From Stegostoma tigrinum (Eukaryota): DNA of 64,000 bases. Position numbers and translations under genes: made by a program. The notes beneath the pieces were generated by a model, which did no database searches, was not told where the DNA came from, and saw only the letters and a program-made list of their open reading frames with translations. Shown here in pieces: positions 1 to 59,960 of the stretch; position 1 is the stretch's first letter; each line of letters starts with the position of its first letter. The DNA is taken from contig NC_081369.1 of assembly GCF_030684315.1 (NCBI RefSeq), positions 2,842,689-2,906,688 of the forward strand, in the 5' to 3' direction.

Positions 1-132
1 ATGTAAAGAGAGGGGGAGCCTACCTTCATCTCTTCAATGTGACTGTCCGGGACGCTGGAACATATTTCTGTGCAGTCAAAAATCAGCATCAAACGGTTGA
101 TAACAAACCCTCTGCGCAACTTGATGTCTACG
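1..132 (+). CDS. Gene A, Ig V-set exon (3' part only; 5' end outside window)
   Basis: Frame from nt 3: VKRGGAYLHLFNVTVRDAGTYFCAVKNQHQTVDNKPSAQLDVY, containing the V-set DxGxYxC motif; phase-1 donor G|GTTAGT at 132/133; paralogous to 34797-34926. Confidence 0.9.
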
Positions 133-384
133 GTTAGTGCAAACAGAGTTAAACGTTAACGTTTGGCTCCAATGAACGATGAATGTGTTAGCAAAAAATT
201 TTTTCGTAAACATATACAGTGCATATAAAAGCGTTCACTTCTTTGGAACCTTGTGTTCAACAATGTACACAACAAAAACACATCATAGTAACATTACACA
301 GTTCAGCAACTGCACTATGTCAGCAACTGGTTTTTAGTTATGGAGTGGAGAAAGCTAATGCAAAACTTTCATGTGAGGCACTTC

Positions 385-685
385 TTACAATGTGAGCTTG
401 GAGTAACGGAGTGAATTTGTCTGGAGCTTATTGGCAATATTAAGCATCTCTAAGGCTTTTGAGTAGGTTTGTAGCTCGGGTTGTGGATGTTGTGGTTTGT
501 TGGCTCTTCCAATTGGCTCGTTGTTCCGCAGACGTTTCATTACCCTGCTGGGGAACATCATCACTGTCTTTCCGGGAAAGGACAACAGTGCTTCATCGGA
601 GGCTACACCATCGATGTTCCCCAGCAGGGCAATAAAAAGTCTGCGGAACAACGAACCAGCTCGGCGAGCCAGCCAACCACAATGT
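385..685. mobile_element. Penelope-like element terminal fragment with inverted repeats
   Basis: TGGCTCGTTGTTCCGCAGAC (~514-533) is inverted at ~639-660; degenerate hammerhead core on the minus strand at 531-564; absent from the gene B intron. Confidence 0.55.
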
Positions 686-1255
686 TAAGCATTTTAAATG
701 TCCTTTTATTTTTAACTTTGAAAAGCCAAATTCCTATTCCCCTCGTTTAGATTGTGGCCGTCTCATTTTCTATGATCCAATTGCCAAACCGCTGATTGCG
801 AGGAGGGAGACAACGCAAATGTATTTGTATTGATTAAGAGATAACACAGGGTGGAACTGGAGGAACACAGCAGGCCAGGCAGCATCACTGGAGCAGGAAA
901 GTTGACGTTTCGGTCGGGGTTTACCCTTCCGAAAAAGGGGTCTCCTTCTTTGTGCTCCTCCAGCTCCACGCCGCGTTTATTTCTGATTCCAGAATCTGTA
1001 GTTCTTACTATCTCGTTGTATTAATTAATATGGACACAAGGTAGTATCCAATTTTGCTGAACGTGCAGGTAATGTACCAATTGCATTAGGACGTCGCGGC
1101 ATGAAAAATGTAATAACAACTCCCGCCACTATAAGTAATGACGATCATTGCAGCTGCCATATCCAGAAGTAACAGCTGGTTAGTTCATTAAATCATTTAA
1201 GTTTTGGTATAGAAGCCCAGTGTTCACATTTATGTGAATTTTATTTACAATACAG

Positions 1256-1561
1256 CTTCACCAGCTCCCCTAAACATTGTATTGATACGTTCCGAAGATC
1301 CTTCATCTGCTTCTTTCAAGCTGCAATGCAGAACATCTGGCTTTTATCCGGAATACTTTAACCTGACTTGGCACAGAAACGGGGCACAAATCTTCACTGG
1401 ATTTAGAAATGAAAAACAGGCAAAAGGCGAGGGACTTTATGAAGTGGTCAGCTCTTTGGACATACCAAATATACCGGAAAGTGACACAGTCTACATGTGT
1501 CATGTGTATCACGTTTCAAGCGCATTTCCAGCAAATGCCAGCTGCACTGTGACGAAAGACG
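1256..1561 (+). CDS. Gene A, Ig C1-set exon
   Basis: Acceptor TACAG|, donor G|GTAAGA, phase 1-1; LQCRTSGFYPEYFNLTW...YEVVSSL...YMCHVYH carries the C1 motifs CxxxGFYP, W and YxCxVxH. Confidence 0.93.
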
Positions 1562-2559
1562 GTAAGATTCTATGACACGATGTACGTTAATCTTTCAGAC
1601 ATTGTTTAAAAACGTTGACCGAGTAGAAAGTGGTTGCTAAATTCAGTTGCCTCCCTTATGTCAATCCCGAAATTTGACACGATTGTACAGTTAAGGGTTT
1701 CCTTACTGCAACTTATTCCGAAGGTGTGTGGTATATTGTTAGGTCAGATACTCCAATACAGGACATTCGTCATCGAGGGGTCCCGTAGTTTAAGTACATT
1801 ATGTTGCAATTTACTGTGAATAACTGGAAATCTTAAAGAGGGACAAAGAACTAGAGAGGAATATCAACACGTTATCCAGCACAGATGAGGCCGTTTGATC
1901 CATTGACTGCACTGTACCTATTTACATTCATCACACTTTCCAGCAATTAGCCCATAACCTTGAATTTTATGACAATTTAAATGCTCATCCACGTTCATTT
2001 CGTAAAGTTTTCCCATCTGTATTAACCCCCTCCCCCCCAACAGTACGTTCCTGATACTCAACACCTTCGCTGAAAAACTACTCCTCAGATTTCACTCTAA
2101 ACCTCTTGCCTTTCCCTGCCCAAATTATAACATCTCGTCGTTTGCCTTCAACTGAAGGCTACAGAGATAGTAGGAACTGCAGATGCTGAAAAATCTGAGA
2201 TAATAAGGTGTAGAGCTGGATAAACACAGCAGGGAAAGCAGCATCAGAGGACCAGGAAAGCTGACGTTTCGGGCAGACCCTCTTCTTCAGACCTTTTCTT
2301 CTTTCTGCAGAAGAGGCTGAGCCCGAAATGTCAGCTTTCCTGCTCTTCTGATGCTGCTTGGCCTGTTGTGTTCATCCAGCTTTACACCTTGTTGACTAAA
2401 AGGAACAGTTGCTTTTATTCCACCCTGCCCATTCCTTCATTATCGCAGGCACCTCAATCAGGATTCTCCTCAACCATCTCTGCTCCGAAGAAAACACTCC
2501 GTGTTTCTCCAAACTCTTCATGGCGAAAATGTTCCAAACCAGACAGCATCCTTGTAAAT

Positions 2560-2777
2560 GAGAGATAATGGGAACTGCAGATGCTGGAGATTCCAAGATA
2601 ATAAAATGTGAGGCTGGATGAACACAGCAGGCCAAGCAGCATCTCAGGAGCACAAAAGCTGACGTTTCGGGCCTAGACCCTCTCTGATGAAGGGTCTAGG
2701 CCCGAAACGTCAGCTTTTGTGCTCCTGAGATGCTGCTTGGCCTGCTGTGTTCATCCAGCCTCACATTTTATTATCTT
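2560..2777 (+). mobile_element. Penelope-derived short palindromic element with hammerhead core and 15-bp TSD
   Basis: Perfect 87-bp inverted arms 2595-2681 and 2691-2777; TSD AGCATCCTTGTAAAT at 2545-2559 and 2778-2792. Family members near 840-1010, 2165-2395, 3444-3630, 17360-17490, 25880-26215, 40570-40950, 43838-44068, 58156-58296. Confidence 0.85.
2684..2711 (+). ncRNA. Minimal hammerhead ribozyme motif
   Basis: CTGATGA - A - GGGTCTAGGCCC (helix II) - GAAAC - GTC; palindromic ACGT for a dimer-type helix III; helix I is weak. Confidence 0.55.
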
Positions 2778-2833
2778 AGCATCCTTGTAAATCTCCTCTT
2801 CACCCACCTCAGTGCAATCAAATCTATCTGTAT

Positions 2834-4020
2834 TGTTGGGCTGAAAGTATGTGGCAGATTATTTTTAAGCCTGATATGAAATGATTACAAGAAGATGTGC
2901 ACTCATTGTATAGATAATTTGTTTAGTTAATACTTCACACATTTATGAATTAATTGTCGCCATTTTAAATTACGGATAGACATTAAAGTGAAATGGTTCT
3001 GTTAAACTATTCAGAAATCTATTTTTAGAAGTGTTTTTCACACTGCCTTTTGGATCACGTGAGACTTTGGCGTTGGCAGCATTTGGAGCTCTGTCCCAGA
3101 TTCCATAGTGCCAGTTTCACGAACTCTAGCCCAATGGCGAAAGGTCAATGACCAAGGTAAAGCCGCTGATATTAAATTGTGTTTGAATCTGAATCTGAGA
3201 GGCATGGATAGAGTCGATAGCCAGAGACTTTTCCCCAGGGCAGGATTGACTGCCATGAGGGGTCATAGTTATAAGGTGTTCGGAGGAAGGTATAGAGGAG
3301 ATGTCAGAGGGAGATTCTTCACCCAGAGAGTTGTGAGCGCAATGAATAGTTTACCAGTGGAAGTCGTGGAAGCAGAGTCATTAGTGACATTTAAGCGACT
3401 GCTGGACATGCACATGGACAGCAGTGAATTGAGGGGAGTGTAGTGATAATGGGAACTGCAGATGCTGGAGAATCCAAGATAATAAAATGTGAGGCTGGAT
3501 GAACACAGCAGGCCCAGCAGCATCTCTGATGAGAACCTCTGATGAAGGGTCTAGGCCTGAAACGTCAGCTTTTGTGCTCCTGAGATGCTGCTGGGCCTGC
3601 TGTGTTCATCCAGCCTCACATTTTATTATCTGAGGGGAGCGTAGGTTAGGTTGTTTTATTTTTGGATTAGGATTATTCCACGGCACAACATCGTGGGCCA
3701 AAGGGCCTGTACTGTGCTGTACTTTTCTATGTTCTATGTTCTATGTTACACGCCATATCACCACTTCCAGTACTTTTCCACGTTTTCCGCTGTGCAGAAT
3801 AGAAGCTGAAAACATCTTTCATCGTGTCTTTTTAGCTGCACATTATTCTGTTCCCCACCCATCCAAGGTCATGTGGGTACCTCCCAACCAAAGAAGGCCG
3901 TTTTTACGCGAAACCTGTAATTTTGCACTTGTCTTCAATTGCTGATTTTCATGTCCAATTAACACTTAATGATTAGCCCTGAATAGTCTGGTTTCAACAT
4001 TTTTTTTATTGCACACTACA
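2834..4020 (-). repeat. 3' LTR of ERV copy 1 (interrupted by CR1 at ~3196-3745)
   Basis: Direct similarity to 8224-9056 and 36845-37479; on the minus strand it starts TGTAGTG after PPT-like ATCAGAGTGGTC and ends AACA. Confidence 0.7.
3196..3745 (+). mobile_element. CR1 LINE 3' end
   Basis: RGMDRVDSQRLFP...RGRFFTQRVV; (TTCTATG)n tail. Confidence 0.85.
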
Positions 4021-7000
4021 GACCACTCTGATATTTTCAAGATAGATCATCAAAACCTTATTCAAGCATGTACATATTGCTCAATAGATTCAACTTGGTT
4101 ATACATGTGGTATAGTTTACAGACCATTACACACGTGCATAAAAAATGAAAAAAAATTAACAATATTGTAACAAGGGTGATACCATAAGAGTGAGAGTAC
4201 TGCTGAAGCTTTTGGTAACTGTTGCTGAAATATGACCCTCTAATGATGCGTAGTAAAGGTTCCGCAGTTGTCTACTTTGCGAATGAATTGAGCATGGCAG
4301 CAAGTCATGGCAGTTTCGTGCTGTAAAAGTCATGGTGTGCTTCTGCCAGTGGGAACCAATCTGCAGGACAGCCTGCTGTTTCTTAAAGATCACATGTGGA
4401 GATACCAGACTCAATTGGCTAGTGAAGTTATAGTGAAGTTATAGTGAAGTTACACAGTTATAGTTTCCTATTCTTTGATAATGTGTCTTCATTTCTAATT
4501 TCATCATAGATAACGCACATTTTGTCCCTAAGTAGGCTGGCGGATGTTTCCTCTCTTTTATCATTAAATTTTATGACACAATGTGAGTGCTGATTGCACG
4601 CTTGCGGGTCAGGTCAGTTTCATGGATGATCGAGTCATTAACGGTAACTTCCTGCGCGAATATCCCTGCCTTGATGCAACAATACAAAACATGCTTGAAA
4701 GGTAGAAGGATATAAAAGGCATGCTAAGCTTTCTGGGGCTTTGTTACTATAAGGTCTAGTTGCTGTTATGCAGCTATTTGCCTGAAAGTGAGCATATCCC
4801 CAAACAGATGAGGTCGGGTGCTGAACGGGAACCACAATTACTGTTGTGTGCTGTTTAAAATCACAAGAACGGCATTAGATGCTGTGACATTGCAATTGCT
4901 CTATAGCACATCAGGCATAAGTGTTCAGTTAGTAAATGGTGAGGTGAAAAAAATTTCTAATACAGCAGCTGTACGGATAGCAATACTTTGGTTAATTGAT
5001 GTCACTGTGCGAAAACTATACAGTTCGAGCAGATTACAATGTACTCAGTTAGTTTCGGCAGGTAGATTCATCTGGGCGTGATACATTTCCAAAACAGCAT
5101 TTTCAGCAAAAGTCCATACCATGCCGTTCAAAAACCAATTTGCTAAGTCTCTATGGACTAATTATTTGGTCACCGCAACGAATAGTTTAATAGGTTCCTC
5201 AGTTATTTGCCCAGTTTTAGCAATTTTATGTTTGGAGCCTCAACACCCATGGAAGTTAGCAGACCTATTCCTACTTCTGATCAATATAGAACAGTGAAGA
5301 GTACATCCCTCCTGCCTTACCTCTAATGTTAACGGTGTGTTTACAGAGCGGCAATGAGAAGGTAATTTTTCCATTGTTCATCTCCACTGTCAAAATTAAA
5401 ACAATATCCTGTTTGAACACAAGGGTACAGACTATTGGAGTACTACTGGAGATGGGGTAATTGAATTGTACTTAATGGACCTGGATTTATGGCCCACCAA
5501 GACGGTTTACACCCCTTTTATCTCTCGAGCATTTTGACACAACAGCTACTCAACCCGCATACGAGCCACTGCCAGGCAACATCTCCCTTCGGCGCTGTGT
5601 CCCAAGATTTCAGTAAGAAACCAGTCCTGTGGTGAGTTCTAATTAGGTTAAGTGAGGCACATGCCTGCTTCAATAAGACAGCATCGCCACAAAGCTTTGG
5701 GCCATTTCTTTAGCAGTCCAGGCCTGCACCTCACTGATTTTATTTCTCATATTGTCAGGAATCACACGCTCTCCCCGGCCCATTGTATTCTCAGCAAAAT
5801 AACACACCGGCTTGGTCCCTGGATTTTCTTAGGATTAATTTCTCTGCCTTTATTCTTGAGATGCTAAATCAAAGTTGCTATGTCTTTGGCTATTGCTTCC
5901 ATTGAAGGGCGATGTAGCAATATATCATCAATATAAAGGGTTAACTCTCGCTGGAGAGAGGGGACATCTCCAGATCCTATTAAACCATGGCAGAGAGTTG
6001 GAATGTGCAAGGAGCCCTGTGCAACCCACAAACCGAGTGCTGTCCTCCCACCTGTGTGAAAGCAAACTGATTTTGTGAATTCTTATCAAGGAAATGAAAA
6101 TATTTGAGAGGTAGATTCCAGCAAACCATTCATCAACTCCCAACGACAGTGGCTCCGGTAATGTTACAATCTCTGGGAGAGCCAATGTCAATGCTGGGGT
6201 GTGTTGGTTTAACTGTCAGCCATCTACCATCATTCTCCAGTTACTACCTGGTTTCTGCACTGACCATGCAAGGCAGTTATACAGGAAGACAGCAGGTCAT
6301 ACAACTCTTGCTTTCACTGACCCTTCAATAGTATCTGCGATCTCCTTGTGTCTTCAATACTGCTTGCCGTTAACATTTCGCAAAGGGAGTGAAATGTATT
6401 GGGTTTTCCACTTAGCTTTCCCAACCACGACATTCATCCTTTATACATCAAAACAAGACGTTCCTGTTAGAGTCCATACTCCCATTCCCCTAACAACAAT
6501 TGCACCAGAGCCTGCACCCTCGGTCTTTCTGCTCTCTCAAACCTATTAAAAGTGATTTTATTTCCCGCATGTCTAGACCATAGCAAGCCAGGCCGCAATG
6601 TGCTGTTTATTTCCATTTCTCCAATGAATTGCGATTGGGATGTGTGATCTCTCTACCGTTGAGTCGACTCCCCCTTTTGGTCGCATCTCAGTGTTCTGGC
6701 CACCTTCTCAGTCTCGGGGATTATTCACTCTCCACATCTGCTCCAGGTCCTCTCATGTAGGGTACAGAAGGAACTCTGATATATCCTTTTAATATTTTTT
6801 TCTGGGAAGTAGCATCTAAATCAGAATTGGGTCCTCACAGCATGGGAGGGGTCGATGTCCCCTTTTGTCCCTGACCGGATTTACCAATATTTTTTCCAGA
6901 GGGAACACATAACACTGATGGTGATACCATGCATTTTCTGTCTATTTCAGACCTGTCTGTGCCTGTTTTCCACACAGCAGCAAAGATCTCATTTTGCTGA

Positions 7001-8223
7001 TTTTCTTTTTTTGTTTCCTGTCCTTCCCTGGGTTTCCCTTGTTACCGCTCTCCTGCATTATGCTTGGCGCACTTCCGCATCCACTAACTGTCCAAACAAC
7101 ATTACAACTTCACCGAATGGTCTGCCCTGAGCTCGCCCCAACATTGCCAGCAGCGTCCCTCTGAGATGCGTGGCACGATCTGGATTCTCATTCGGGTTGC
7201 GAAAGCTTCCGGGTCCGGTTGCAAATCGTTTGTACACTCTCCTGTTTGTCTCAATCAGGCACTTCCCTGTGATATTGTACGGCATGGTACAATTTCCTGC
7301 TCCCAATCCATGGTGTCCAGGTAAGTAATTCTGACTGCTACACGTGTACATGCAGCTAATGTTCCAGGCCCATAGGCCTATATAGAACATTATATGTGGC
7401 TTCATTTGAAAGAAAGTCTCCAATATTCTGGAGTCCCTCATTATTGAGAAACATTAGACACGCACAGGGCCCCAAAGCGGGTTAATCCAGCTCCCAGTGC
7501 CCTACTTTTTGATGGAATATTTTTCCCAAATCCTGCAATCCTGTCAGTGGGTAACCCGGCACAATGCGAGCATGCTGTGGCGGGGTGGGGGGGGGGGCGG
7601 TTGCTGCTGGCCGCGCCCTTTAGCTGTATTAGTTACTAACTGGCGCGCCGAGGGGGCATAATATCACCGTTAGAGTCTCCTTCCCATCAGTCCCCTCGTA
7701 CTCCGAATGGACGAATATCACTCTCAGTGATCGGGGACCCGATCAGTTGAAGCGAATAAAAAGGGCACTTGAGCTAGATTCACTTTCCAGTTTCTTTTTC
7801 CCGGTTCGCCCGCTTTTTGTGCTGGACTGTGGCCAATTTGCAGGTTCTGCCGGTCTGCTTCTTCTCAACTTTATGCGCGCTTTCCTGAGCAGTCCGAGCC
7901 ACCGTCGCCAGCCCAGCGGTCAATGTACCATTCGCCTCCTTTCAATCTCGCACCTCCCGGGGCAGCATACGGGAGGCCACTCAGTAGGATCCACCCCATG
8001 TGGGTGACACCCTTGATTTGCTTTGGGAAACCTACTTCCCTCAGACAGCCCTTCATGGCACAGAGTCATCCTTTGGGATTCTGCTCTAAATTATTTTGTC
8101 TGCTACAACCAACCTAACCCATTGAATTAATCACGAAAGGACCATCCCAGGACACCGAATGTTCTTCAAACTATCATTTTCTTGAACGTTTTGCTCAGAT
8201 GCTGCTCGCATAGCCTAATATTT

Positions 8224-9056
8224 TGTTCAGCCGAAAGTCCCTAACTGGTTCTTGTAGGTCTGATCAAGAAAATGCGTGCACTTCAGTAGAAAGCTAATTA
8301 TAGGGTTGAAATATTTCACATATATATGAATTAGTAAAGTGAGTCTATTCGATATATAGTTCAATACATATATAAAAGCTAAATCGTGAGTTTAAATGAC
8401 TGAGATGTACATTAACGATGCGAGTCTCACACTGCCTCTCTGCTCCTTGGGGAGTTTGGCGATGGCTGTACTTGGAGCTCGATCTCCGGTTCCACGGCAC
8501 CTGGCTCACGCCCAACAATGAAAGTTTATTGACTGGGGCTAAGTCCACCGACATTAATACTATTCTGAATCTAATGTTACACGCTGTTTTACTGTTTTCA
8601 AGTGTCTTTAGTGGTTTTCCAGGCATTCCGCTGTGCAAAAACAAAAAATGATATGGAGGTGCCAGTGTTGGAGTGGGGTGGAGACGAAGTCAGAAGTCAC
8701 ACAGACCACGATATAGCCCAACAGATTCATTTGAAATCACAAGCTTTCTAAGCGCTGCTGTTTGGTCAGGTCCTCTTCACCTGATGAAGGCGCAGCTGTT
8801 GGAAAGCTTGTGATTCCAAAACAAAACGTGTTGGACTATAACCTAGCGTCTTATGACTTCTAACAAAAACTAAAACATTTCCAAAGTGGATCTTTTTTAA
8901 CTGCGCAATAGCATTCCCCTCCAAGCCAAAAGAAGCTGTTTTGCCATAACCTTGCGTTCTTCCATTTGCCTTCAATTGTACATTTTCATGTCCAATTAAC
9001 CTTTGAGGCTTAACTCTTATGGTCTGTTTTGGAAATGCTTTAAGCAAAACACTTAG
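8224..9056 (-). repeat. 5' LTR of ERV copy 1 (with Penelope-type insert at ~8650-8865)
   Basis: Blocks such as CTTCAATTG..ATTTTCATGTCCAATTAAC are shared with 3933-3963; followed on the minus strand by a degenerate tRNA-Ser-like PBS (TAGGCTATGCGAGCAGC, 8217-8201). Confidence 0.68.
8777..8813 (+). ncRNA. Minimal hammerhead ribozyme motif, second family (degenerate helix II)
   Basis: TCAC-CTGATGA-...-GAAAGCTT-GTGA; helix I TCAC/GTGA, palindromic AAGCTT. Confidence 0.45.
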
Positions 9057-9559
9057 GATAGTATGGTGACCCGAAACGCTCACAGTGCTCAAGCTGTGGT
9101 CTAAGCAAAGTCCTGTAAAACGTCAACCTCGTCTCCTTGCTCTTATAAATCTACACCGTCACTGGTAAGACCATATGCCACGTTTGTCTTCTTAACCACC
9201 CTGTTGAACTGCCCTGTTACCTTCAGGGACCCGTGGACAGAAGTCCAGACCTTTCCTGTTCGTCTGAGCTCTTTGTCTCACGCCGTTCAGTGAGAATCCC
9301 CGTCTTGTTACTTCTTCCAAAGACCGCTGAATACCTTCACACACGTTCAGAGTGCGATGTAGGCAAGGGTGTACCCATTCATCCCAAAATTCAACAGAGT
9401 CTAGTAGATCTTCTGATTGCATTGCGATATTGTTTACTGGGAGCACATTTATTGCCCATATGCAATTGCCAAGAGCGCAGTTTACAATCATCCAATTTTC
9501 AGTGAGTCACATGTAAGACAGTTAACATTGGCAGAATTATTTCCAAGAGGATCAGGCCA

Positions 9560-10085
9560 TACAGTCATAGAGATGTACAACACAGAAACAGACATTTCAT
9601 TTCAACTTCTCCATGCAGACCAGACATCCTAAATAAACTTTGTCCCATGCGCCACCATTTGGCATATATGCCTCCAAACCATTCCTCAAGATGCCTTTTA
9701 AATGTTGTAATTGTACCAGCCTGTACCACATCTTCTGGCAGTTCATTCTAACCATGCATCGCCCTCTGCATGAGAAAGTTACTCCTTCGGTCCGTTTTAA
9801 ATCTTTCCCCTCTTACCTTAAACCAATGCCCTACAGCTTAGGACTCCGCCACACTGGGAAAAGTACCTTGACTATTTACCCTATCCATGGCCCTCGCAGT
9901 TTTACAAGCGCCTGTAAGGTCCATAAGGTCACTCCTCAGCTTCTGCGGTTCCAGAGAAGATAGCCCCAGACTATTCAGCCTCCCTCTGTAGCTCAAACCG
10001 TCCAAACCTGGCAATATTCTAATATATCTTTTTCCAAATGCTTTGAAGTTGAACAGCATGTTTCCTGTAGCATGGAGACCGGTAG
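9560..10085 (-). mobile_element. CR1 LINE 3' fragment
   Basis: ILPGLDGLSYRGRLNSLGLSSLE; paralog at ~42310-42840. Confidence 0.8.
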
Positions 10086-10610
10086 TTTTACGACAAATGC
10101 CATTCCGGGTTTTTATTGAATTCAAATTTCACCATTGCACTGGTGGCATTAAAATCTACTTGCCAAGAGCTTGTAGCTCGCTCTTGTTAGTCCAGTGAAG
10201 TACAAGTATGCAATTGCCTCCCCTCAACAGTTAGATTGGATGCACATGGAGAAAGATTTCCTTTGAAAAGGTGTCAATTAATTTGTGCTCCAAAGTGAAT
10301 CTCAAAGAACGTCATCCCATTATAACTGTTATCTGATCTGAACTGTTTTTATTTGAATATTACCAGTGTTGGATATATTAATTATCTTTATTGCTTCATC
10401 TGCCTTTCTTTCTCCACATTCTTATGGTTTGCCCTCTGTATCTAACTGCATTTAGGAACGCTGAGGGGAGAAATTGACATGTGAAATTTCATGTACAGTA
10501 GCAAAATATTTACAGGGCAGTTTAATGGGAAACAAAGCATGTATTATTTAAATTTGTACGTCTTGATTTCCAATACAATTTCTCATTTTAATGCTGTGTT
10601 ATTCTAATAG

Positions 10611-10724
10611 ATTTTGCCTCTAAAATCAGTATTCCTGTTGTTGCTGGATGTTCCACTGGAGCACTTGCAATTCTATTGTGCACAGCGGCGATTGTCAAGT
10701 GTCGTCTATTCATTATAGCTAAAG
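10611..10724 (+). CDS. Gene A, transmembrane exon (uncharged TM)
   Basis: AATAG| ... G|GTATGA, phase 1-1; DFASKISIPVVAGCSTGALAILLCTAAIVKCRLFIIAK; conserved at 43404-43517. Confidence 0.85.
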
Positions 10725-11162
10725 GTATGAACAATGATAGGCATTCTAAATGAAATAACTTGCATACAAGCATTGAATAAACAACCTGAAGTGCATGTAC
10801 ACAATGAGGTAATGAAATCTGACTCGTTCAGTTAAATTAAATATGTGTTGTAAAAGTATTTGAAAACATTTGTGTCACTTCAACCTTGCATTGCATATTC
10901 AGATTCATAGCTTTAGTATGCTAATGCCTATCTTTTCAGATCTGAAGTTAGTCCAGTGAATTTCACTGATGAAGTAATATTTTCACTGTGTCAACACAAA
11001 CTAAATAATGTTACTTGTGCTCAACATTTTGAGATACACCCTGAATCTAGTTAACCTCTTATACATTTTGTCTATGTGAATGGCATGGCATTTTGCCATC
11101 AGACTGATGAACGCAAACATCACACCTTTCTTGACAATTAATGCCAAATTTATTGTCACTAG

Positions 11163-11206
11163 GTTCAAAGGAAGAAACAAGAAATCCTACTAAGCACAAA
11201 GATGAG
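11163..11206 (+). CDS. Gene A, cytoplasmic exon 1
   Basis: CACTAG| ... GAG|GTAAGG, phase 1-0; GSKEETRNPTKHKDE; paralog at 44178-44221. Confidence 0.8.
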
Positions 11207-11786
11207 GTAAGGTCTCCAGCCATCGACTTTGCTTCAAAATTTATCTGAATGATTCAGAGACTGCAATCAAAAAAAATCTGTTCTGTAAAACTACGTAAAA
11301 ATCTATCTGGATGGAGGTGAAAAGTTTTATTATCATGACCAAATTAGCCTTTAATATGAAAGGAACACAGAGAAAGAAATGCCTGGAAGTATTAGTCACT
11401 GAGAACTATCCTACTTACAATGAATATATCCATCATTGTACAGTCATTCATGTTTCAAGATTCTCTTACAATGTTATTGATTATCTTTTGTCACATGTTG
11501 GTGGATGGACATAGTTATGTAGTCTATTCCTCAACAAAACTGCTCCAGAAAAGTATACCTACCACACTCTTAAAGTCATCCTTCACAGCCTTTGCACTCG
11601 TTAATATGTCTTGATTGAATCCAGCCATGATTGTTGCAAAACCTATGTACTGCACTTCACTGATCTCTTTATTTTGCCTATGCATCACCTTACTACTGGT
11701 GTTTGTGGCTTATAAGCTTCTGCCAATGTTTCCTCTGCTTGATGTTGCTTAGCTCCATGAAAGCAGATTCCTCATTTCATTTTACA

Positions 11787-13219
11787 GTAGTAGTTCTTTG
11801 ATGAGGTTACAAGACAGGTTGACAAGGGTCAAGCAGTGGATGTGGTGCACATGGACTTCAGCAAGGCATTTGATAAGGTTCCCCATGGTAGGCTCATTCA
11901 TAAAGTCAGGAGGTATGGGATACAGGGTGATTTGGCTGTCTGGATTCAGAATTGGTTGGCTGACAGGAGGCAGAGAGTGGTTGTAGATGGTTAAGTATTC
12001 TGCCTGGAGGTCAGTGCTGAGTGGTGTCCCACAGGGCTCTGTTCTTGGGCCTCTGCTCTTTGTAGTTTTTATAAATGACTTGGATGAGGAGGTTGAGGGG
12101 TGGGTTAGTATGTTTGCTGATGACACAAAGCTTGGAGGTGCCGTTGATAGTATCAAGGGCTATTGCAGGCTTCAGCAAGACATTGACAGAATGCAGAGCT
12201 GGGCTGAGAAATGACAGATGGAGTTCAACCTGGATAAATGTGAAGTGATGCATTTTGGAAGGTCGAACTTAAATGCTGAATATAGGATTAAAGGCAGAAT
12301 TCTCGGCAGTGTGAAGGAATAGCGGGATCTTGGTGTTCAAGTGCATAGCTCCCTTAAAGTTGCCACCCAGGTGGATAAGGTTGTTAAGAAAGCATATGGT
12401 GTTTTGGCTTTCACTAACAGCGGAATCGAGTTTAAGAGCCATGAGGTTATGCTGCAGCTGTACAAAATCCTGGTGAAACCACACTTGGAATATTGTGTCC
12501 AGTTCTGGCTGCCCTATTATAGGAAAGATGTGGAGGCTTTGGAGAGGGTGCAAAGGAGGTTTACCAGGATGCTGCCTGGACTGGAAGGATTGTCTTACGA
12601 GGAGAGGTTGACTGAGCTCAGACTTTTCTCTCTGGAGAGAAGGAGGAAGAGAGGTGACCTGATCGAGGTGTACAAGGTAATGAGAGGCATGGATAGAGTC
12701 GATAGCCAAAGACTTTTCCCCAGGGCAGGATTGACTGCCATGGGGATCATAGTTTTAAGGTGTTAGGAGGAAGGTATAGAGGGGATGTCAGAGGCAGGTT
12801 CTTTACGCAGAGAGTTGTGAGAGCATGGAATGCGTTGCCAGCAGCAGTTGTGGAAGCAAGGTCATTGGGGTCATTTAAGAGGCTGCTGGACATGCATATG
12901 GTCACAGAAATTTGAGGGTGCATACATGAGGATCAATGGTCGGCACAACATTGTGGGCTGAAGGGCCTGTTCTGTGCTGTACTGTTCTATGTTCTATGTT
13001 CTATGTTCACTCAGACAGTTGTGAGTGCATAGTTTACCAGTGGTAGTCATGGAAGCAGAGCCATTAGTGACATTTAAGCGACTGCTGGACATGCACATGG
13101 GCAGCAGTGAATTGAGGGGAATGTAGTTTAGGTTATTTTATGTTTGGATTAGGATTATTCCATGGCACAACATTGTGGGCCGAATGGCCTGTACTGTGCT
13201 GTACTTTTCTATGTTCTAT
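11787..13219 (+). mobile_element. Young 5'-truncated CR1 LINE (RT C-terminal half) with two tandem 3' ends
   Basis: [43 protein letters not shown]; (TTCTATG)n at ~12985-13006 and ~13207-13219; absent from gene B. Confidence 0.92.
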
Positions 13220-14406
13220 TACTTTGATCTGTGATCCAAAAATACAGATCCCCTCCATTACTATTGATGCAACAGTAGCAGATCCTGTTTTCCTTTATCT
13301 GTCCTAAATTTCATTGGATAATCAGTTTTCCTGATCATCCTACAGCGATTTTTCATAAAATTAATTACATCACAGCAATTCATTTCTATTTTTTGGCTTT
13401 AAATCATTTACCTTGTTGTCCCTGTTACATGCATCGAGTAGACAGCCCTTGAAATTGTGTTATTTCTCGTGATTTCCAGCTTTGATAATACTTACCTTCA
13501 TTTCCTCTGGCCTTGTTGGGTTGTCACTCCATATTTCAATGACTCAGGTACAGAGGTGCAGATCGCACGTGAAGAATTGCCAATATTAAAGCAATATTGC
13601 ACAAAAGTCTGAGTATATATGTCAAACAAAGTTGATATTTTGTGTTTTGTTCTATGAATGAATGAAATTAACAGTTAAATTATGTCACTGCTTTATATAT
13701 GGCCAGGTTCCCAGTTAATCTGTTGCCTCATGTTTCTATCTGAACAAAAAATCTTCAAATAGAAATTAACATTTTGCTGGAAAATGCTATGAATCATTTT
13801 GTGCACTTTAAAGCTTCAATAGAATTGGATTGTATGTTCATCATCACTAAAAACCTTACTGTCCTATTTATTACCATTCAAGCTGGACTATTGAAAAAAA
13901 ATTACTGAGATCTAATTATTTCATTACTATTCAACTTGCCAATAAATATTTGCTTCTTACAGTATAATTAGATTATTAATTTAAGTATTGAACGGAAAAT
14001 ACGCGGGATGCTAGTTTGAAACCAATTAATACAACCAATAGAGTAGAGTTTTAGTTATTACACACAGTTTGAATTGTACTTTTATTTCCAAATGAAGGGA
14101 TATGTGTATCGGTAACATAATTTACATTTGTAAAGGAAATGCAGATCAATTCCATCAAAATCTACAGCAAAATCTTCACAGCATCTGCAACTTGTTACAG
14201 GATGTAATGTTGAATGATTTTTGTATGAATGTTGAAAATTGATAATGTTGAATGAATGAACTGGATACAGAAGGTTGCATCTGTTAAGAATGTAACAGAG
14301 TGCTGTAGCAAACCCAAGGAGATAAAGTAATTCTCATTGATTACTACATGTTAATTTTTGACTCCAGAAAATATAAATTCATGTGTGTTAAACTTTTACT
14401 TTCCAG

Positions 14407-14517
14407 AGGAAACAAGAGACAGCTGAAGCCAGATTAATGTATGCTGATCTTAAACTGGTCCACTCAAAGGATGCTAAAATTCTTAAGCTCCAGGCTGAAA
14501 GCACAATATATGCAGAG
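14407..14517 (+). CDS. Gene A, cytoplasmic exon 2 (ITIM LMYADL plus TIYAE)
   Basis: TTCCAG| ... GAG|GTACTT, phase 0-0; RKQETAEARLMYADLKLVHSKDAKILKLQAESTIYAE. Confidence 0.85.
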
Positions 14518-14656
14518 GTACTTTTCTGTTCATGTGTTAGAATTCAGTAATTGTTTTCTTGATTATAAGCACTTGGTTTCAAGACAGCATTGAAAAATTC
14601 TCAGCATTTTATGAAATTTGAAGCAAAAATGAACTACTTTCAATGTAATCTTACAG

Positions 14657-14791
14657 ACCAAAGACAGCATGGGAAAAAGCCAGCCAAACTATGCTGCTCT
14701 GAATTTGAAAGGTCCCAAGGTAACCTTGAAACCAGAACAGAAAACTGCAACTCCATTGTATGCAGCGGTGAAAAACAGCAGCCAAATTTAG
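14657..14791 (+). CDS. Gene A, last coding exon (PNYAAL, PLYAAV); whole product is a SIRP-like V-C1-TM-ITIM receptor
   Basis: TTACAG|; TKDSMGKSQPNYAALNLKGPKVTLKPEQKTATPLYAAVKNSSQI, stop TAG at 14789-14791; paralog at 45774-45902. Confidence 0.82.
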   Translation, partial: TKDSMGKSQPNYAALNLKGPKVTLKPEQKTATPLYAAVKNSSQI

Positions 14792-34226: not shown

Positions 34227-34280
34227 ATGAGCAGCCAGATTTTTATTGTCGCTATTTTTTTGAGTGGATCACTGTGGAAC
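34227..34280 (+). CDS. Gene B, candidate signal-peptide exon
   Basis: MSSQIFIVAIFLSGSLWN followed by GTATGT, with a TATAAAAA near 34090. The phase (0) does not match the phase-1 V exon, so it is either the wrong exon or carries a 1-nt lesion. Confidence 0.3.
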
Positions 34281-34614
34281 GTATGTTTTCTGTGCATTCT
34301 GTACATGCTCCTTCTCGCAGTGTTTGAAATGTTCTTTATCAAGGCGGAAGAATAATTGAACTGTTATTTGAAAGATAATCGGTGACATTTTTCGTATGTT
34401 TTTCACGTCAGAGTTCCGTGTCCTGGGAATCCTCTGGACAAGTGAAAAAATGTTTGCGGTAGATGCATTCGGGCAGAAATTCAGTTAGTGGAACAGAATT
34501 TAAAGAGCAAGACATGCTAAATTGCTGCTGTTCGAGTGGATTGGATCATTTATGTTATTTCATGCTGTAGGTCATCTTCCCTGTTTTATCATTGCGCATA
34601 TCTTCTGTTAACAG

Positions 34615-34926
34615 TTGCTGTGTGCACTTCGGACACCGTTACTCCGGATGTTAGGCAAATAAAGACCCTGATAAATAAAACAGCTACCCTGCGATGCCCT
34701 TTCTCCTTCGATCTCAACCACGCAAACATAAGTGTTTTCTGGTGGCGAAATGGTAGTCAAACGGTTCTGGAGGAGGACGGCAGAAAACTCTTCAAAGTAG
34801 GGAAAGGTGGAGCCTACCTTCATCTCTTCAATGTGACCGTGCTGGACGCTGCAACATATTACTGTTTAGGCAGTTATCAGCCTCAAAAAGCTTTTCATAA
34901 TCACACTACTCAACTTGTTGTCTACG
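34615..34926 (+). CDS. Gene B, Ig V-set exon
   Basis: TAACAG| ... G|GTAAGT; VRQIKTLINKTATLRCPF...VFWWR...AYLHLFNVTVLDAATYYC...QLVVY with canonical C-W-C; frame open. Confidence 0.92.
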
Positions 34927-35610
34927 GTAAGTCTTACCACAGTTATACATTAAGTGTTGATTCTAATGAACAGTAAATGCAAGTTAGCAGTTACTTTTTC
35001 ATAAGTATAGACAGTAAATATAAAATCGTTCACTTCTTCGCAGTGACATGTTCAATAGTGTGGTTTAAAAAAAGCATCACCAGCGACATGACAGAGTTCA
35101 GCAATTGTACTGTATCAACAAATGGTATTGGAATTTGTGTTACATTGAAAGCTAATGTAAGGCTTCCAAGTGAAGCATCTTTTACAATTTCGGCATCGGG
35201 CACCAGTAAATTGTCTGGAGATGATCGGCAATATGTCATCTTATTTTCAACTTTGAAAAGCCAAATTCCTATTCACCTCACTTGGATTGCCGTTCGCTCA
35301 TTTTCTGTGCTCCAGTTCCCAATTCGCTGATTGCCATGAGTGTACAGTTTGAAATCTCAAACATATTTGAAGAATTAGTACAAACACAAGGTAGCATTCA
35401 ATTTTGCTGAACGGACAAGTGAGGTATCAATTGCATTAGGGGGTGTCGCTACATGATAAAAGTAATAGCAACCCCCACCTGTATAAATAACGACGATCAA
35501 TGCAACTGCCATACACCGAAGTAATGGTTGATTAGTTCACTAAATCGTTTAAGTTTTTGAGCAGAAGTCCAATGTCCACATTTATTTAAATGTTATTATT
35601 TATAATGCAG

Positions 35611-35930
35611 CTTCACCAGCTCCCCTAAAAATTGTATCGATACGTTCCGAGGAACCTTCAGCTGCTTCTTTCAAGCTGCAATGCAGGACGTCTGGCTTTT
35701 ATCCGGAAGACTGTAACCTTACTTGGCACAGAAACGGTGCACAGATCTTCAGTGGATTTAGAAATGTAAAACAGGCAAAAGGCGAGGGACTTTACCAAGT
35801 GGTCAGCTCCTTGGCCGTGCCAAATATTCCGCAAAGTGACACAGTCTACAGGTGTCAAGTATATCACATTTCGAGCTCATTTCCAGTAAATGCCAGCTAC
35901 ACTGTTCGGAAAGAAGGGAAGATTTTATGA
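35611..35930 (+). CDS. Gene B, Ig C1-set exon; donor lost, reads through to GKIL-stop
   Basis: ATGCAG|; about 80% aa identity to the gene A C1 exon (20 of 102 residues differ by manual count); the homologous donor at 35917 is GGAAGA; TGA at 35928-35930. Confidence 0.88.
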
Positions 35931-35976
35931 CACATTGTACGTTAATCTTTCAGACATCATTTAAAAAGGCTGACGA

Positions 35977-35982
35977 AATAAA
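35977..35982 (+). terminator. Candidate poly(A) signal for a secreted V-C1 transcript of gene B
   Basis: AATAAA 46 nt after the read-through stop; the aligned gene A sequence (~1621-1630, GAGTAGAAAG) lacks it. Confidence 0.4.
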
Positions 35983-36844
35983 AAGTAATTCATGCAGTCA
36001 TCTGCGTTTAATTATGTCAATCCCGAAATTTGACATGATTGTATGGTTAAAGGTTTCGTTTCTTCAACTTATTCCGAACGTGTTTAGGATATTGTCAGTT
36101 GAGGTACTGCCAAAAGTGAATATTCGTCCCATAATTTTAATAAAATACAAGTAATGTTACAATTCATTTCCGAAGATACATTCAGTGTTAAATAACTGGA
36201 TACATTAAAGAGGGACAACGAAATGGAGAGGAAAATCAGTCAATAAATGTGGAGCTGGGAAAGCACAGCAAGTCAGACAACATCCTGACGAAGTGTCCAG
36301 GTGGAAACAGTGACCTTCCTTCTTCTCTGACATTGTCCGATCTGCTGTGTTTTTCCATTCCCACATTTATCGATGCTAGTTTCCAGCATCTGCAGTCCTT
36401 ACCGCCTGCGAGACGAATATCATCAGGTTATACAGCACAGAAAAAGCCCTTTGGTCCATTGAGTGCAGCCCACCTATTTATACTAATCACACTTTGCAGG
36501 ACTTGGCCCATAGCCTTGAATATTATGACATATTAAGAGCTCGCCCATATACGTTTCTTAAAATTTTCTTAATTGCGCAATCTCTCAGGCAGTGAATTCC
36601 AGATACCCAACACCGTCTCGATGAAAAATCAATCCTCCAATTCGCACTAAGCCTCTTGCCAATCCACCCTGTCCGTGCCTTCATAATCGCATACTCCTCA
36701 ACTAGGGGTTCCTTCAATCTTCTCTGCTCCAAAGAAAACAGCCCGTGCTTCTTCAGAAACTTTATAGCTAAGATGTTCGAAACCAGGCAGCATCCTGGTG
36801 AATCTCTTCTGCGCCCTCCCCAGTGCAATCAAATCTTTCTGTAT

Positions 36845-39800
36845 TGTGCGGCCTGAAGTATCTAACGGATCATTTTAAGGTGTGATTGAAATGATTACAA
36901 AAGACGAGTGCACTCATTACATAGCTAATTTATTCGGTTAATTATCCATAGGTACATGAATTAACAGTTGTCATTATAAATTATAGATATATGTTAAAGT
37001 TAAGCAGTTGGGCTAAACGACCCAGATATGTATTTAAGAAGTGATTCTCATACTTCTTTTCGGACTCGGTGGGGACTTTGGAGATATCAGCACTTGGAAC
37101 TCTATCTCAGATACTACGGCGTCGGTCTGACGAACTCCAGCCCAACGGTGAAAGTCTGATGATTGGGGCAAAATCCTCGATACGAATAAAGTTTTCAATC
37201 TCCTGTTGGATGTTTTATCACCATTTCATTCCGTGTGCTCCACAGTGCAAGAAAAAAATTGAAAAAATTCTCCCAGGTGGCTCCTTTATAACTGTACATG
37301 ACTCGGTTTCTCACCCAGCCAAGGCCATGCAGTTAGCCCCCAGCCAAAGAAGGCAGTTTTTACACTAAGCCTGATATTTTCCACTTGTCTTCATTTGCTG
37401 ATTTTCGTGCCCAATTCACTTTTAATGATTAACCTTGAATGGTCTGGTTTAGAGATGTCACTTGTAAGTCCCCACGACACACCATCCATTGATGTCTTCA
37501 ACTTCTTTGAAAACCTTACACAAGCACGTACATGCTGCTCAATAGCTACAAGTTGTTTATACATCTGATATAGTTTACATGCCATTACACAGGTACATAA
37601 AAATGAGAATTAAACAATTAATAACAGTATAAACAGCTGGATATTGTAGCAGTGAGAATACTGCTGAAGCGTTTGTTGACCGCCCGTTAAATATGTCCCA
37701 CGAATGATGCATGGCAAGGGCTTCTGAATTGTCTGTTTTGCGAATCAATTGGTCAGGGCTGATGTCATGACAGTTTCATGCTGTAAGAAGCCATGGTATG
37801 CTGTTGCCAAATGAGAAGTCATCTACTGATGCTTGGCAAGGAAATCCTGCAATTTCTTAAATATCACATTTGAAGCTATGCTACTCAATGCACATTTATC
37901 ACCGTCCATTCTTTGTTTATGTGGAATTTATATCCAATTCATCAGAGATAACATGTACTTTGTCCCTGCATAGCTTTGGCGGATGGTTTCACTGCCTTAA
38001 CATTGAGGTAGACAATATTAGTGCTGGAATCAAATATGTGGCTCAGGCCAAGTTCAGGACGATTGTTTCATGGTTGAAAGGAAGGAACATATAAGGGACA
38101 TACCAGAACTTCTGGCTATTGTGCCCAGTGCGTCTAATTGTTGTTATCCACCCATTTTTCATAAAACACAGGCGTGTGCAGCATGCCACAAAACAGATGA
38201 CTTAGAGTGATAAAATGGCAGCATATTTGCTGCTATGTACAACTTAAAATAAAAATAAATTGTCATTACGTCCTGTGGCATTGTAATTACTCTTTAACAA
38301 ACCAGTCATAAGTACTAAGTTAGTAATGGTGAGGGGAAATAATTCTTTCCAAGACAACAGATGTCTGGATTGCAATACATTGGTCACCACGTCGTTGTGC
38401 TAAAACGGTACAGCGGGAGCAGATTACAATGTATTCAGTTAGCTTCACGAGGGTGTGATACCTTTCCTAAACAGTGCTATGAGCAAACTTCCACACCACG
38501 TCAGTCAAAAACCAATTTGCTAATTCTCTGTGGGCTAATGATTTGGTCCATGCAACAAATAGTTTAATAGCTTCCTTAGTTGAGGTTGCCCAGCTTTAGC
38601 AATTTTATTTTGCAGACTATCAATATCCAAGAAGGTAACACACATTTTTCTGACTCTATTCAACCTAGAATAGTGAGAAGTACACCTCTCCTGCCTCGCC
38701 TCTGTAATGTTAATGGTGTGACTACAGAGCGGCAATGGGAAGTTAATTCATTTCCATTGATTATCTCCACTGTCACAGTCAAAACAATATTTGGTTTGAA
38801 CTTTGGAGCATAGGTGTCATACAACTGCTGCAGTTTGAGAAACTGCATGGCATTTAATAGACCTCGATTGATGGCCCACCATAATAATCCCCAAGATGGT
38901 TTACGCCCCTTTCTCTCAGTTGCATTTTAACACAGCAGCTAATCACCCCGCAAATGAACCACTGCCAGGCAACATCTCCCGTAGGCGCTGTGTCCCAAAG
39001 TCAAAGTAAGAAACCAGTTAAGTGGTGAGATGTTATTAAGTTGTGAAGGATGTGCATCTTCAACAACTCAACATCGCCATAAAGCTTTGGAATATTTCTT
39101 TCGCGGTCTCGGCTTGCACGTCACTGATTTTATTTCTCACTTTGTAAGGAAGCAAACGCTCTCCTCGGCCCATTGTATTCACGGCAAAATAATACTTTGG
39201 CTTGGTTCCTGGATTTTCTTAGGAGTAATTTCCCAGACTCTGTTCCACTGCTGAGTCAAAGTAGCTATGTCTTTGGCTCATGCTTCCTCTGAAGGACCAC
39301 GCAAAATGTCATCAATATAAAGGGCTGTTATATCTCTGGAGAGAGAGAACATCCCCAGATGCTGGCTATGAAACCGTGGCAGAGATTTAGACTATGTTAG
39401 TAGCCCCAACAACCTACAAACTGTGTGCTCGCTGCCCTTCTGTGAGAAAGCAAACTGATTCTGCGAATTCTCATCAAGTGCAATGGAGAATAAAGTATTA
39501 GCTGGGTCACTTACGGCATACAAATCATCAGTTCTCAATGACAGTGAGTCCAGTAATGTTACTATATCTGGGAGAGCTGATGCCAACGGTGGCTCGCGTT
39601 GGTTTAACCTTCAGTCATCGACCGTCATTACCATCTGGTTTCTTTACTGGCCATAGATGTCAGTTATACAGGAAGATATCAGAACTACAACCCTTGCTCT
39701 CGCTGACCCTTCAAAAGTGTCTGTGATCTCCTTATGCCCTCAATGTTTGCTTACCATTAACAATTCGTGCAGGATACGGAACTTATTGGGGTTCCCAATT

Positions 39801-42200
39801 GACTTTCCCAATGACAATTATCATCCCTAATATACCAAAACAGGCTTCCCGATTGGAGTCCATAGTTTTATCCCCCTCACAACCCTCACAAATTCTATCC
39901 CTCCAATATTTTCATTTCCGCTTCCCATTAATACAGATACCATCCGCGGTGGGCTATTCCTCATTGCCAATCGCACCGGTGTCCGCACCGCCCGGGTTTC
40001 CGCTCTCTCAAATCTATTCATAGTTATTTTGGTCCCATTGTCTGGAAGGTATCGAGCAAGACCATAACTTGCCATAAATGTATCCAATGAATTGTGATTC
40101 AGATGTGTGGCCTGCAGAACCATGAGTTAAGTTCCCCTAATGGTCACATCTCAGTGTCCCGGCCACATTCCCAGTCGAGAGGATTACTCACTCTCCACAT
40201 CTGGTCCAATTCCTCTCATGCAGGGTGTAGAAGGAATTCTGATGCACCCTTCTTTTTTTCTGGGAAGTAGCATCTAAATCAAAATTGGGGTCTCACACCA
40301 TGGAAGGGGTTGATGTCTCCTTTGGTCCTTTGCCAGATTTGCAAATCTTCTTCCAGTGGGAACATGTAACACTGATGGTCATACCAAGCATTTTCTCTCT
40401 ATTTCAGGCCTGCCTGTGCCTGTTCTCCACAACACAGCAAACATCTCATTTTGCTGACTTTCTTCATTCGCTTCCCGTACTTCCCTGGGTTTCCCTTGTT
40501 ACCGCTCTCCTGCATGAGCTTGGCGCACTTCTGCATCCACTAACTGTCCAATGAACATTACAAATTAACCATAATAATAAAGTGTGAAGCTGGATGAACA
40601 CAGCAAGGCCAACCAGCATCTCAGGAGCACAAAATCTGGCGTTTAGGGCCTAGACCCTTCATCAGAGAGGGGGATGGTGAGGGTTCTGGAATAAATAGGG
40701 AGAGAGGGGGAGGTGGCCCAAAGATGGAGAGAAAAGAAGATAGGTATCTTGTTTTCTCTCCATCTTCAGTCCGACTCCCCCTCTCTCCCTAGTTATTCCG
40801 GTTCCCTCTCCCCGTCCCTCTCTCTGACGAAGGGTCTAGGCCTGAAACGTCAGCTTTTGTGCTCCTGAGATGCTGCTTGGCCTGCTGTGTTCATCCAACT
40901 TAACACTTTATTGTCTTGGATTCTCCAGCATCTGCAGTTCCCATTGTCTCTATTACAAATTCACCGACTGCTCTGCCCTGAGCTGGCCCCAACATTGCCA
41001 GCAGCATCCCTCTGAGATGTGTTAGTCCAATGTGTATGAGCTGGATTCTCATCCGGGTTGTGAAAGCTTCCTGGTCCATCCGCGGAAATTGTTCGTATAC
41101 AATCCCGTTTGTGTCGCTAACTCGGGAATCGGGCACTTCCCTGTGATATTGTATGCCATGGGACAGCTCCCTGCTCCCAATCCGTGAGAGATCCGGATAC
41201 TTAGTTCTCACTGCTATGCGTATCCAAGCAGCTAATGCTCCAGTTCCTTGTGCTCCATGTCTAGCGTTATGTGTGGCTGTGTATGTAGGCAAGCCTCATT
41301 ATTGAGAGAAACATTAGACGCCACGAGTCCCACAGCCAGGTTAATCCAATCTCCCAGTGTCCTGATTTCTGATGGAATATTTTTCCCCAAATCCTGCAAT
41401 TCTGTCAGTGGGTAATACTGCACAATGAGAGCATGCTGTGGGGGGGAGGGGTGCTGCTGGCCGCGCCCTTTAGCTGTATTAGTTACTAACGGGCGCACTA
41501 AGGGGCACAACATCACCATTAGGGACTCCTTCCTCCTCAGTCTGCTCGTACTCCAAATCGGACGCATATGAGTCCCAGTGATCAGGGACCAGCTGAAGTA
41601 AATCAAAACGGCACTTTAGCTCGATTCACTTTCCAGTTTGTCTTTTCTTTTTCTCTCCCGGCTCGCCCGCTTTTTGTGCTACAACGTGGCAAATTTGCAG
41701 GTTATACAGTTTGACTGTAGTTTCTTTCCAGCCCGGCAGTTAGACACACCATTGTTTTGCCCTTCTCACATTCTGATCACTTAATCTGCGCCATCACCAT
41801 CCTTTCCAATCCAGCACTCCAACACCACCCATCCATCCAGATATCACCAGCTCCGATGAAGCATCGCCTCGGCCGGAAACGTTTGCTTGCTCTCTCTCTC
41901 CATGGAAGCTGCCTGACCCGCTTTGATTCCAAGTACTTTTTGTTTCTGTTGCAGGCTGTACGAGTCTGCTTCTCCTCTACTTTATCTGCTGTTTCCTGAG
42001 CGGTCCAAGCCGCCCTCACCAGCGCAGCATTAACGTCCCGTTCGCCTCCTTTAAATCTCGCACCTCCCGGGACAGCATACAGGAGGCCGCTCAGCAGGAT
42101 GAACCCCATGTGGGTGACGCCCTTGGCTTGCTTTGGGAAACCTACTTCCCCCAGACAGTCCTTCCTGGTGCAGAGTCATCTCTTGGGATTCTGCTCCTAA
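36845..42200 (-). mobile_element. ERV copy 2 (duplicated with the gene unit; 5' LTR missing)
   Basis: RT ALPDIVTLLDSL...ANTLFSIALDENSQNQFAF and YIDD; gag YPLTELQDLGK, HLRGMLLAMLG; env QRRGRR/GVLLTILG...HHSWDIF...VFSLLQYP; 3' LTR at 36845-37479. Confidence 0.85.
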
Positions 42201-43403: not shown

Positions 43404-43517
43404 ATTTTGCCTCTAAAAGCAATATTGCTAAGGTTGCTTTATATGCCGCTGGAGCACTTGCAACTCTATTGCGCACAGTGATGAGTGTGAAGTGTCTTCT
43501 CTTCATTACATCTAAAG
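43404..43517 (+). CDS. Gene B, transmembrane exon with charged residues
   Basis: AACAG| ... G|GTACAA; DFASKSNIAKVALYAAGALATLLRTVMSVKCLLFITSK; Lys codon 43430-43432, Arg codon 43472-43474. Confidence 0.7.
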
Positions 43518-44177: not shown

Positions 44178-44221
44178 ATTCAAAGGAATAAATAAGAAAT
44201 CCTACTCAACACAAAGATGAG
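44178..44221 (+). CDS. Gene B, cytoplasmic exon 1 with premature stop (DSKE*)
   Basis: CACCAG| ... GAG|GTAGAG; TAA at 44189-44191 where gene A has GAA. Confidence 0.7.
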
Positions 44222-44334
44222 GTAGAGACTTTTGTCATCAACTTTGCTTTGAAATTCATCTGAATGATTCAGACATTGCAATCAAAATAATATGCTTTAA
44301 TCTATCTGTATGAAGTCAGAACATTTTACTGTTT

Positions 44335-45523: not shown

Positions 45524-45634
45524 AGAAAACAAGAAACAGCTGAAGATGGATTAATGTATGCTCATCTTGATCTGGTCCATTCAAAAGATGCTAAAATTCC
45601 TAAACTGCAGGATGAAAGAACAATATATGCCGAG
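45524..45634 (+). pseudogene. Gene B, ITIM exon (LMYAHL, TIYAE); open but downstream of the stop
   Basis: RKQETAEDGLMYAHLDLVHSKDAKIPKLQDERTIYAE; splice sites intact. Confidence 0.72.

Positions 45635-59957: not shown

Positions 59958-59960
<3 letters not shown>

Follow-up and report, generated by a model that had tools for sequence, protein, structure and literature searches.

A germline V-C1-transmembrane receptor gene of a shark, from a likely paired family on a human-16q-type chromosome

Several described systems combine an immunoglobulin (Ig) V domain with C1-set domains. SIRP-alpha, -beta and -gamma are V-C1-C1 proteins; the activating SIRP-beta carries a central Lys in its transmembrane (TM) segment, for DAP12, and in human the SIRP cluster adjoins NSFL1C. 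PRARP and Xenopus VJC1 are non-rearranging VJ-C1-TM receptors with inhibitory motifs, described from bony vertebrates as few copies linked to the major histocompatibility complex (MHC) or to T-cell receptor (TCR) genes, and B7-H6 (NCR3LG1), which has a V-C1 ectodomain, is a ligand. Of the sources cited here, one places the human SIRP cluster on chromosome 20 (PMC9652883), one names as a SIRP trait a VJ that is joined in the germline and has GxG in its G strand (PMC11599192), and one describes UrIg as having several C1 domains and lying in the MHC, within a current model that puts antigen-receptor-type precursors in MHC paralogons (PMC10751288). Here we analyse a 64,000-nucleotide window of Stegostoma tigrinum DNA (G000:C19:2,842,689-2,906,688 by genome mapping), at whose left end lies a V-C1-TM receptor gene. 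We think it probable that this gene is an inhibitory member of a cartilaginous-fish, likely paired, receptor family on a human-16q-type chromosome, and likely a SIRP ohnologue rather than an orthologue. The ohnologue assignment of the family, taken by itself, is tentative, and we give it somewhat less than even weight.

The initial annotation had joined six phase-compatible exons into V, C1, an uncharged TM and a four-tyrosine tail, and each of these elements was borne out. The splice ends of the six exons are 10/10 canonical (donors GT 5/5, acceptors AG 5/5), the intron phases are 1-1-1-0-0, and the exons form one open frame up to the stop codon, in agreement with the database protein P0001 (381 aa), which is identical to our assembled model from residue 43 onward. 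All are on the (+) strand. The 3′ part of the V exon occupies positions 1..132, the whole exon measuring 312 nt and beginning 180 bases before the window; the gene extends beyond the window, with the V start and a seventh (leader) exon both upstream of position 1. There follow the C1-set exon, of phase 1-1 (1256..1561), an exon for the stalk and the uncharged TM with an AGC-x-x-G motif (10611..10724), a 44-nt juxtamembrane tail exon of phase 1-0 (11163..11206), and two tail modules. The first of these, of 111 nt, holds the ITIM (immunoreceptor tyrosine-based inhibitory motif) LMYADL, and also TIYAE(T) (14407..14517), and the second runs to the stop with PNYAAL (LTYAAL in paralogues) and PLYAAV (14657..14791). 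Both the V-set and the C1-set domain score above the Pfam cut-offs (C1-set 38.7 bits, cut-off 21). The C1 exon carries FYP, C-x-V-x-H and a Cys-to-Trp interval of 13 residues, and PMC2785349 names FYP, x-V-x-H and 13 residues from Cys to Trp as marks of a true C1-set domain. AlphaFold modelled V and C1 confidently, with a predicted helix at residues 255-285 and a disordered tail. The exon ends are preserved in paralogues, and two DNA runs, possibly from the source sample, span the exons of C1, TM and tail with zero differences. The six window exons are thus a non-rearranging V-C1-TM gene whose joining in transcripts is predicted; six runs presumed to be RNA (X1-X5, X8) covered mostly repeats, with no exon joint among the matches listed, and are silent on expression. 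The single V exon continues through the G strand into its GT donor, which supports the proposal of a germline receptor of a cartilaginous fish; a rearranging Ig- or TCR-type receptor was rejected, as V is one germline exon with no separate V and J segments. The introns are filled with LINE (long interspersed element) reverse-transcriptase fragments and SINE-like (short interspersed element) repeats (window ~11790-13220, 2160-2780 and 3180-3740).

The gene is one of many. Its C1 exon matches the genome at 55 places, 49 of them on C19, with 29 at 2.13-3.00 Mb (cluster 1) and 20 at 9.18-10.26 Mb (cluster 2); 11 of these 49 contain stops. V exon matches fall on C19 in 38 of 39 cases, and one further family gene lies on C19 at 13.68 Mb. 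Relatives occur in Callorhinchus, Heptranchias, Heterodontus, Scyliorhinus, Chiloscyllium, Amblyraja and Mobula, that is, in holocephalans, sharks and rays, under the automatic names SHPS1-like, NCR3LG1-like, tapasin-related and light-chain-like, and the relatives returned by word-based protein searches were chondrichthyan only. A J-type GxG strand ends 23 of the 33 full family V exons examined, and is absent from V of this gene and its close subfamily. Our literature search found no account of the family, though several directly relevant papers lay outside it and a prior description is possible.

The membrane segments divide the family into two classes, one with an AGC-x-x-G TM and often a Tyr tail, the other with a short tail and a TM helix that has an Arg at its N-terminal end; one TM-Arg exon lies within cluster 1 itself, at C19:2,252,022. 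At least two tail Tyr motifs were present in 1/10 TM-Arg proteins versus 26/46 without TM Arg, a count over non-independent rows that include the lungfish protein and a few misclassified entries (P0098, P0094, P0104, P0109), made after 6 of 77 rows had been dropped for want of a C1 motif and then 15 of 71 for want of a TM. Members with related ectodomains, some bearing Tyr tails and others a short tail and a charged TM, thus share one cluster, as is the rule for paired receptors, with function read from the motifs. The family therefore very probably consists of V(J)-C1 paired receptors with inhibitory-type and activating-type members. The initial annotation had proposed an inhibitory receptor family; the inhibitory-type tail of this gene stands, and the family as a whole is very probably paired, with short-tailed TM-Arg members too. 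Against four close paralogues, dN/dS (the ratio of amino-acid-changing to silent substitution rates) was 0.97-1.64 for V and 0.24-0.40 for C1, by a simple counting method without significance test. V thus appears to change its amino acids at about the silent rate while C1 changes more slowly, and such rapid V change, together with gene birth and death, would agree with pathogens or polymorphic self exerting pressure.

Both clusters stand among genes (BBS2, NDRG, MLYCD, AMFR, OSGIN) that we take to be human 16q genes. Beyond cluster 2 come an AMFR-like first exon, BBS2 exons (~120 kb from the cluster) and an NDRG gene (~200 kb); MLYCD is on the same contig, and an OSGIN-like exon lies ~70 kb beyond cluster 1. 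The AMFR-like and OSGIN-like labels are presumptive: the former exon had no PDB or Pfam match, and the sole match of the latter was a generic oxidoreductase. NDRG occurs at four loci (C5, C19, C23, C255), the OSGIN-like gene at three (C19, C23, C5) and SEP genes at two (C5 and C23), and these shared paralogues indicate that C5, C19 and C23 (for NDRG also C255) are duplication sisters in this genome. On C23 a p47/NSFL1C-type gene adjoins FAM110, presumably corresponding to the surroundings of SIRP on human 20p13. A scan of 540 kb of C23, taken around the genes of NSFL1C, OSGIN and NDRG type (4,447 bases being N), gave no Ig domain, and C23 held 0 among 55, 44 and 81 genome-wide matches (best candidates scored). 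Because the neighbours on C19 are 16q-type and the NSFL1C-type gene on C23 is without Ig, the family lies off the SIRP locus and on a sister chromosome, and is likely a genome-duplication sister of SIRP rather than its orthologue. Two minor features of these contigs may be recorded separately: the chromosome-20-type contig has an OSGIN-like paralogue that is the third in this genome (G000:C23:1,147,771-1,148,742), humans having two OSGIN genes, and a rhodopsin-family G-protein-coupled receptor exon lies ~70 kb to the left of cluster 1 (L030:8722-9360, (−) strand).

The domain trees point in the same direction. In both, a branch separates the family as a unit (C1 93/94, V 95/77), and it is joined by lobe-finned SIRP-named proteins, coelacanth P0161 and the lungfish SHPS1-like protein P0151 (C1 84/91, V 91/77), in a group set apart from B7-H6-like, MHC and Ig sequences and from a separate V-C1 gene on C14. 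With coelacanth P0161 (V-C1-TM with two Tyr) as query, the top 28 of 81 genome matches were members of this family. Like SIRP, the shark genes combine a germline V, of VJ type in most of the exons examined, with a true C1 and form clusters mixing inhibitory- and activating-type members, the tailed ones with Tyr motifs in variable number; unlike SIRP, they have one C1 rather than two, number ~50 copies, occupy a 16q-type rather than a chromosome-20-type locus, and place an Arg near the outer face of the membrane in their short-tailed members. The family thus resembles SIRP by design and departs from it in locus, in C1 number and in activating residue.

The tail itself says little about SIRP. 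The motifs and their spacing are as first described: LMYADL lies at 14434, PNYAAL at 14684 and PLYAAV at 14753, TIYAET is created only across the last exon junction, and the tyrosines are 23/14/23 residues apart. The four tyrosines had been taken as an arrangement like that of SIRP-alpha; they are two copies of a phase-0, 37-codon module (23+14) that is repeated up to several times across members, giving 1-6 motifs per protein. Since the number of modules varies, four tyrosines are weak evidence for SIRP-alpha identity, and we rejected them as proof of it. Read-through of the last intron (window 14503-14523) would turn the second motif from TIYAET, its spliced form, into TIYAEV, a canonical ITSM (immunoreceptor tyrosine-based switch motif), with a stop soon after.

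We propose that the fast-changing V domain would bind a self or microbial ligand and that Src-type kinases would phosphorylate the tail. The Tyr pairs 23 residues apart could then be bound by SHP-1, SHP-2 or SHP-2L through their tandem SH2 domains, which would damp signals from sibling receptors; the siblings, whose membrane helix has an Arg at its outer end, likely borrow an adaptor with an immunoreceptor tyrosine-based activation motif. Prediction of a homodimer of the V-C1 ectodomain was uninformative (score 0.07).

A number of observations weigh against this picture, and the first of them concern the expression of this copy. Its leader exon, MFVSGSLWNLCFLCISYP, recognised by homology to Heptranchias P0003 (L001:9150-9204, ~540 bases before the window), has a GC donor: CAG is followed by GCACAT here versus GTACA(C/T) in 4/5 aligned paralogues, and in the fifth the donor site is lost. 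The copy may for this reason be an incipient pseudogene or weak allele, in which poor leader splicing leaves little surface protein whatever the function of the family, a possibility that we regard as real but doubtful. The GC donor matches poorly at +4/+5; the first 42 residues of P0001 form a non-signal-like N-terminus that found no place in 9.5 kb of upstream sequence; the third tail motif has changed from LTYAAL to PNYAAL; and both neighbouring copies in the window are dead. One is a tandem paralogue on the (+) strand at 34254..45902 (V 34615-34926, C1 35611-35916, TM 43404-43517, tail 44178-44221, 45524-45634 and 45774-45902), a pseudogene that has lost its start codon and has a deletion across the leader donor, a GG in place of the C1 donor and a stop in the first tail exon. 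The other is a (+) strand remnant at 58072..60760, with a V exon disrupted by a repeat insertion and ending in a J-like NGSG, a 114-nt TM exon (60647-60760), and no C1 found between the two. On the other side, none of the seven coding exons is interrupted and purifying selection acts on C1, which indicates a copy functional until recently. GC-AG introns do occur, and an in-frame ATG immediately 5′ of the V acceptor would give MYLLLTVAVCTS, whose 12-residue hydrophobic start is a possible short signal, with six further ATGs between it and the leader ATG. The GC donor puts expression in doubt and may impair this copy, which we nevertheless consider rather likely to be correctly spliced. Only LMYADL satisfies the strict ITIM consensus (1/4 motifs), and none the ITSM consensus, so the brake of this copy may be weaker than that of SIRP-alpha.

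The remaining points against an ohnologue of SIRP concern kinship. The trees were built without a bona fide tetrapod SIRP or PRARP sequence and their supports are unstarred; the lungfish and coelacanth SIRP-like names are automatic, both proteins having been retrieved as matches of P0001, and the lungfish protein matches the family and the MHC-type exons of C44 equally (35.8 versus 35.6 bits). The NDRG and OSGIN paralogues were named from their neighbours rather than from trees, and the human map positions and the paralogon are as we assume them to be. In approximately unbiased (AU) tests a clade with B7-H6-like proteins was not rejected (C1 p 0.106, V p 0.223). The family profile scored Ig light chains at 71 bits, SIRP-alpha D1-D2, its best non-antibody match, at 67, and UrIg V-C1 at 57, while the V-only profile drew PDB matches dominated by multi-domain proteins. 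Among the structures compared (SIRP-alpha 2wng, SIRP-gamma 4i2x, B7-H6 4zso/3pv7/6yjp and UrIg 9dmx), the top of the structure search was B7-H6 (Z 15.2, 30% identity, rmsd 3.4 over 183 residues), with SIRP-gamma matching on its two C1 domains (Z 14.0). On ectodomain scores, SIRP does not stand out from light chains or B7-H6.

Such results are what would be expected if the family were an independent VJ-C1 lineage, PRARP-like or B7-H6-allied, with a SIRP-like tail acquired by convergence and its place on a sister chromosome due to chance. The single C1, the TM Arg instead of the SIRP-beta Lys, and the duplicating tail module agree with this, and ITIM/ITSM pairs ~23-25 residues apart, such as PD-1 Y223/Y248 (PMC12151841), are widespread. 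We consider this origin unlikely. C5 and C19 together make up 199 of 3,199 Mb, ~6% of the assembly, which makes a chance landing on a sister chromosome improbable; the V tree places the family on the VJ side, separate from B7-H6-like V (95/81 and 97/85); and the C14 V-C1 gene pair falls outside the family in both trees. B7-H6 shares the V-C1 ectodomain, at a structural identity of 26-30%, and lends its name to some family members annotated automatically as NCR3LG1-like, but most shark V domains have the J-type GxG, the V tree sets them apart, and the shark family has ITIM tails and a paired design. PRARP and VJC1 have a layout that the shark VJ-C1-TM-ITIM arrangement fits, whereas the shark family lies among 16q genes on C19, with MHC-type exons on C44. 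The likeness to a TCR or Ig light chain noted initially survives as V-C1 layout, which UrIg also shares; Ig and TCR rearrange, unlike the single germline V exon here, and we found no evidence of TCR- or light-chain-like pairing.

Still less probable is that the family is the true shark SIRP, a co-orthologue moved to another chromosome in one lineage. No SIRP-like exon was found near the NSFL1C-type gene in the scanned part of C23, SIRP-alpha heads the non-antibody matches of the family profile, the tyrosines of the lungfish SHPS1-like tail are spaced 23/15/26, and the closest Atlas clusters carry SIRP names. Yet 16q genes adjoin both clusters, the ectodomain is V-C1 and not V-C1-C1, and reciprocal loss of ohnologues is a likelier course than a move that hit exactly a sister chromosome. 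A 1:1 orthologue of any known receptor was rejected.

The relevance to SIRP origins first suggested for this gene is supported: with a VJ-C1 paired-receptor family that is chondrichthyan-wide and sits on the sister of the SIRP chromosome, synteny in coelacanth, lungfish and gar becomes informative. The family would also give shark immunology a large innate receptor cluster, apparently not described so far, and place a VJ lineage with C1 outside the MHC paralogons. The family matters more in this than the single, maybe decaying, copy. What is new is the 16q-type setting, with no SIRP-like exon found on the chromosome-20-type C23, the coelacanth link, the 37-codon tail module and the GC leader donor. 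A far more speculative extension, to which we give little credence, is that a putative VJ-C1 gene predated the second genome duplication on the ancestor of human 8q/16q/20/14q11, that sharks kept and expanded the 16q copy while tetrapods kept the chromosome-20 copy (SIRP), and that the 14q11 copy was maybe split by RAG into TCR-alpha/delta; an antigen-receptor-type precursor would then have lain outside the MHC paralogon. DAD1, a marker of the TCR-alpha/delta region, was found at C5:31.67 Mb, with a partial match at C17:61.13 Mb, and not on the NDRG scaffold C255.

Searches of the shark genome with a CD47 profile and an opioid-precursor profile, run without a positive control, were blank. The separate V-C1 pair on C14 (L101:92-544 and 4632-4973, at C14:32.137-32.142 Mb, and L180:5221-5544) has a J-type GKGT strand; these are candidate PRARP/VJC1-type genes, and may be better PRARP candidates than the present family. 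Two genes on C20 (L096 and L097, 34.37-34.48 Mb) have long runs of C1 exons and group with V-multi-C1 proteins of 976-1176 aa. Within the C19 clusters, one paralogue has a duplicated TM exon, with the GT donor missing in both copies (L116:4876 and 6318, C19:2.723-2.724 Mb). L102 and L107 are inverted, near-identical copies with zero substitutions between their C1 exons, and L109 and L111 encode identical V proteins but differ in the attached C1/TM exons; recent duplication or conversion would be expected to leave such patterns.

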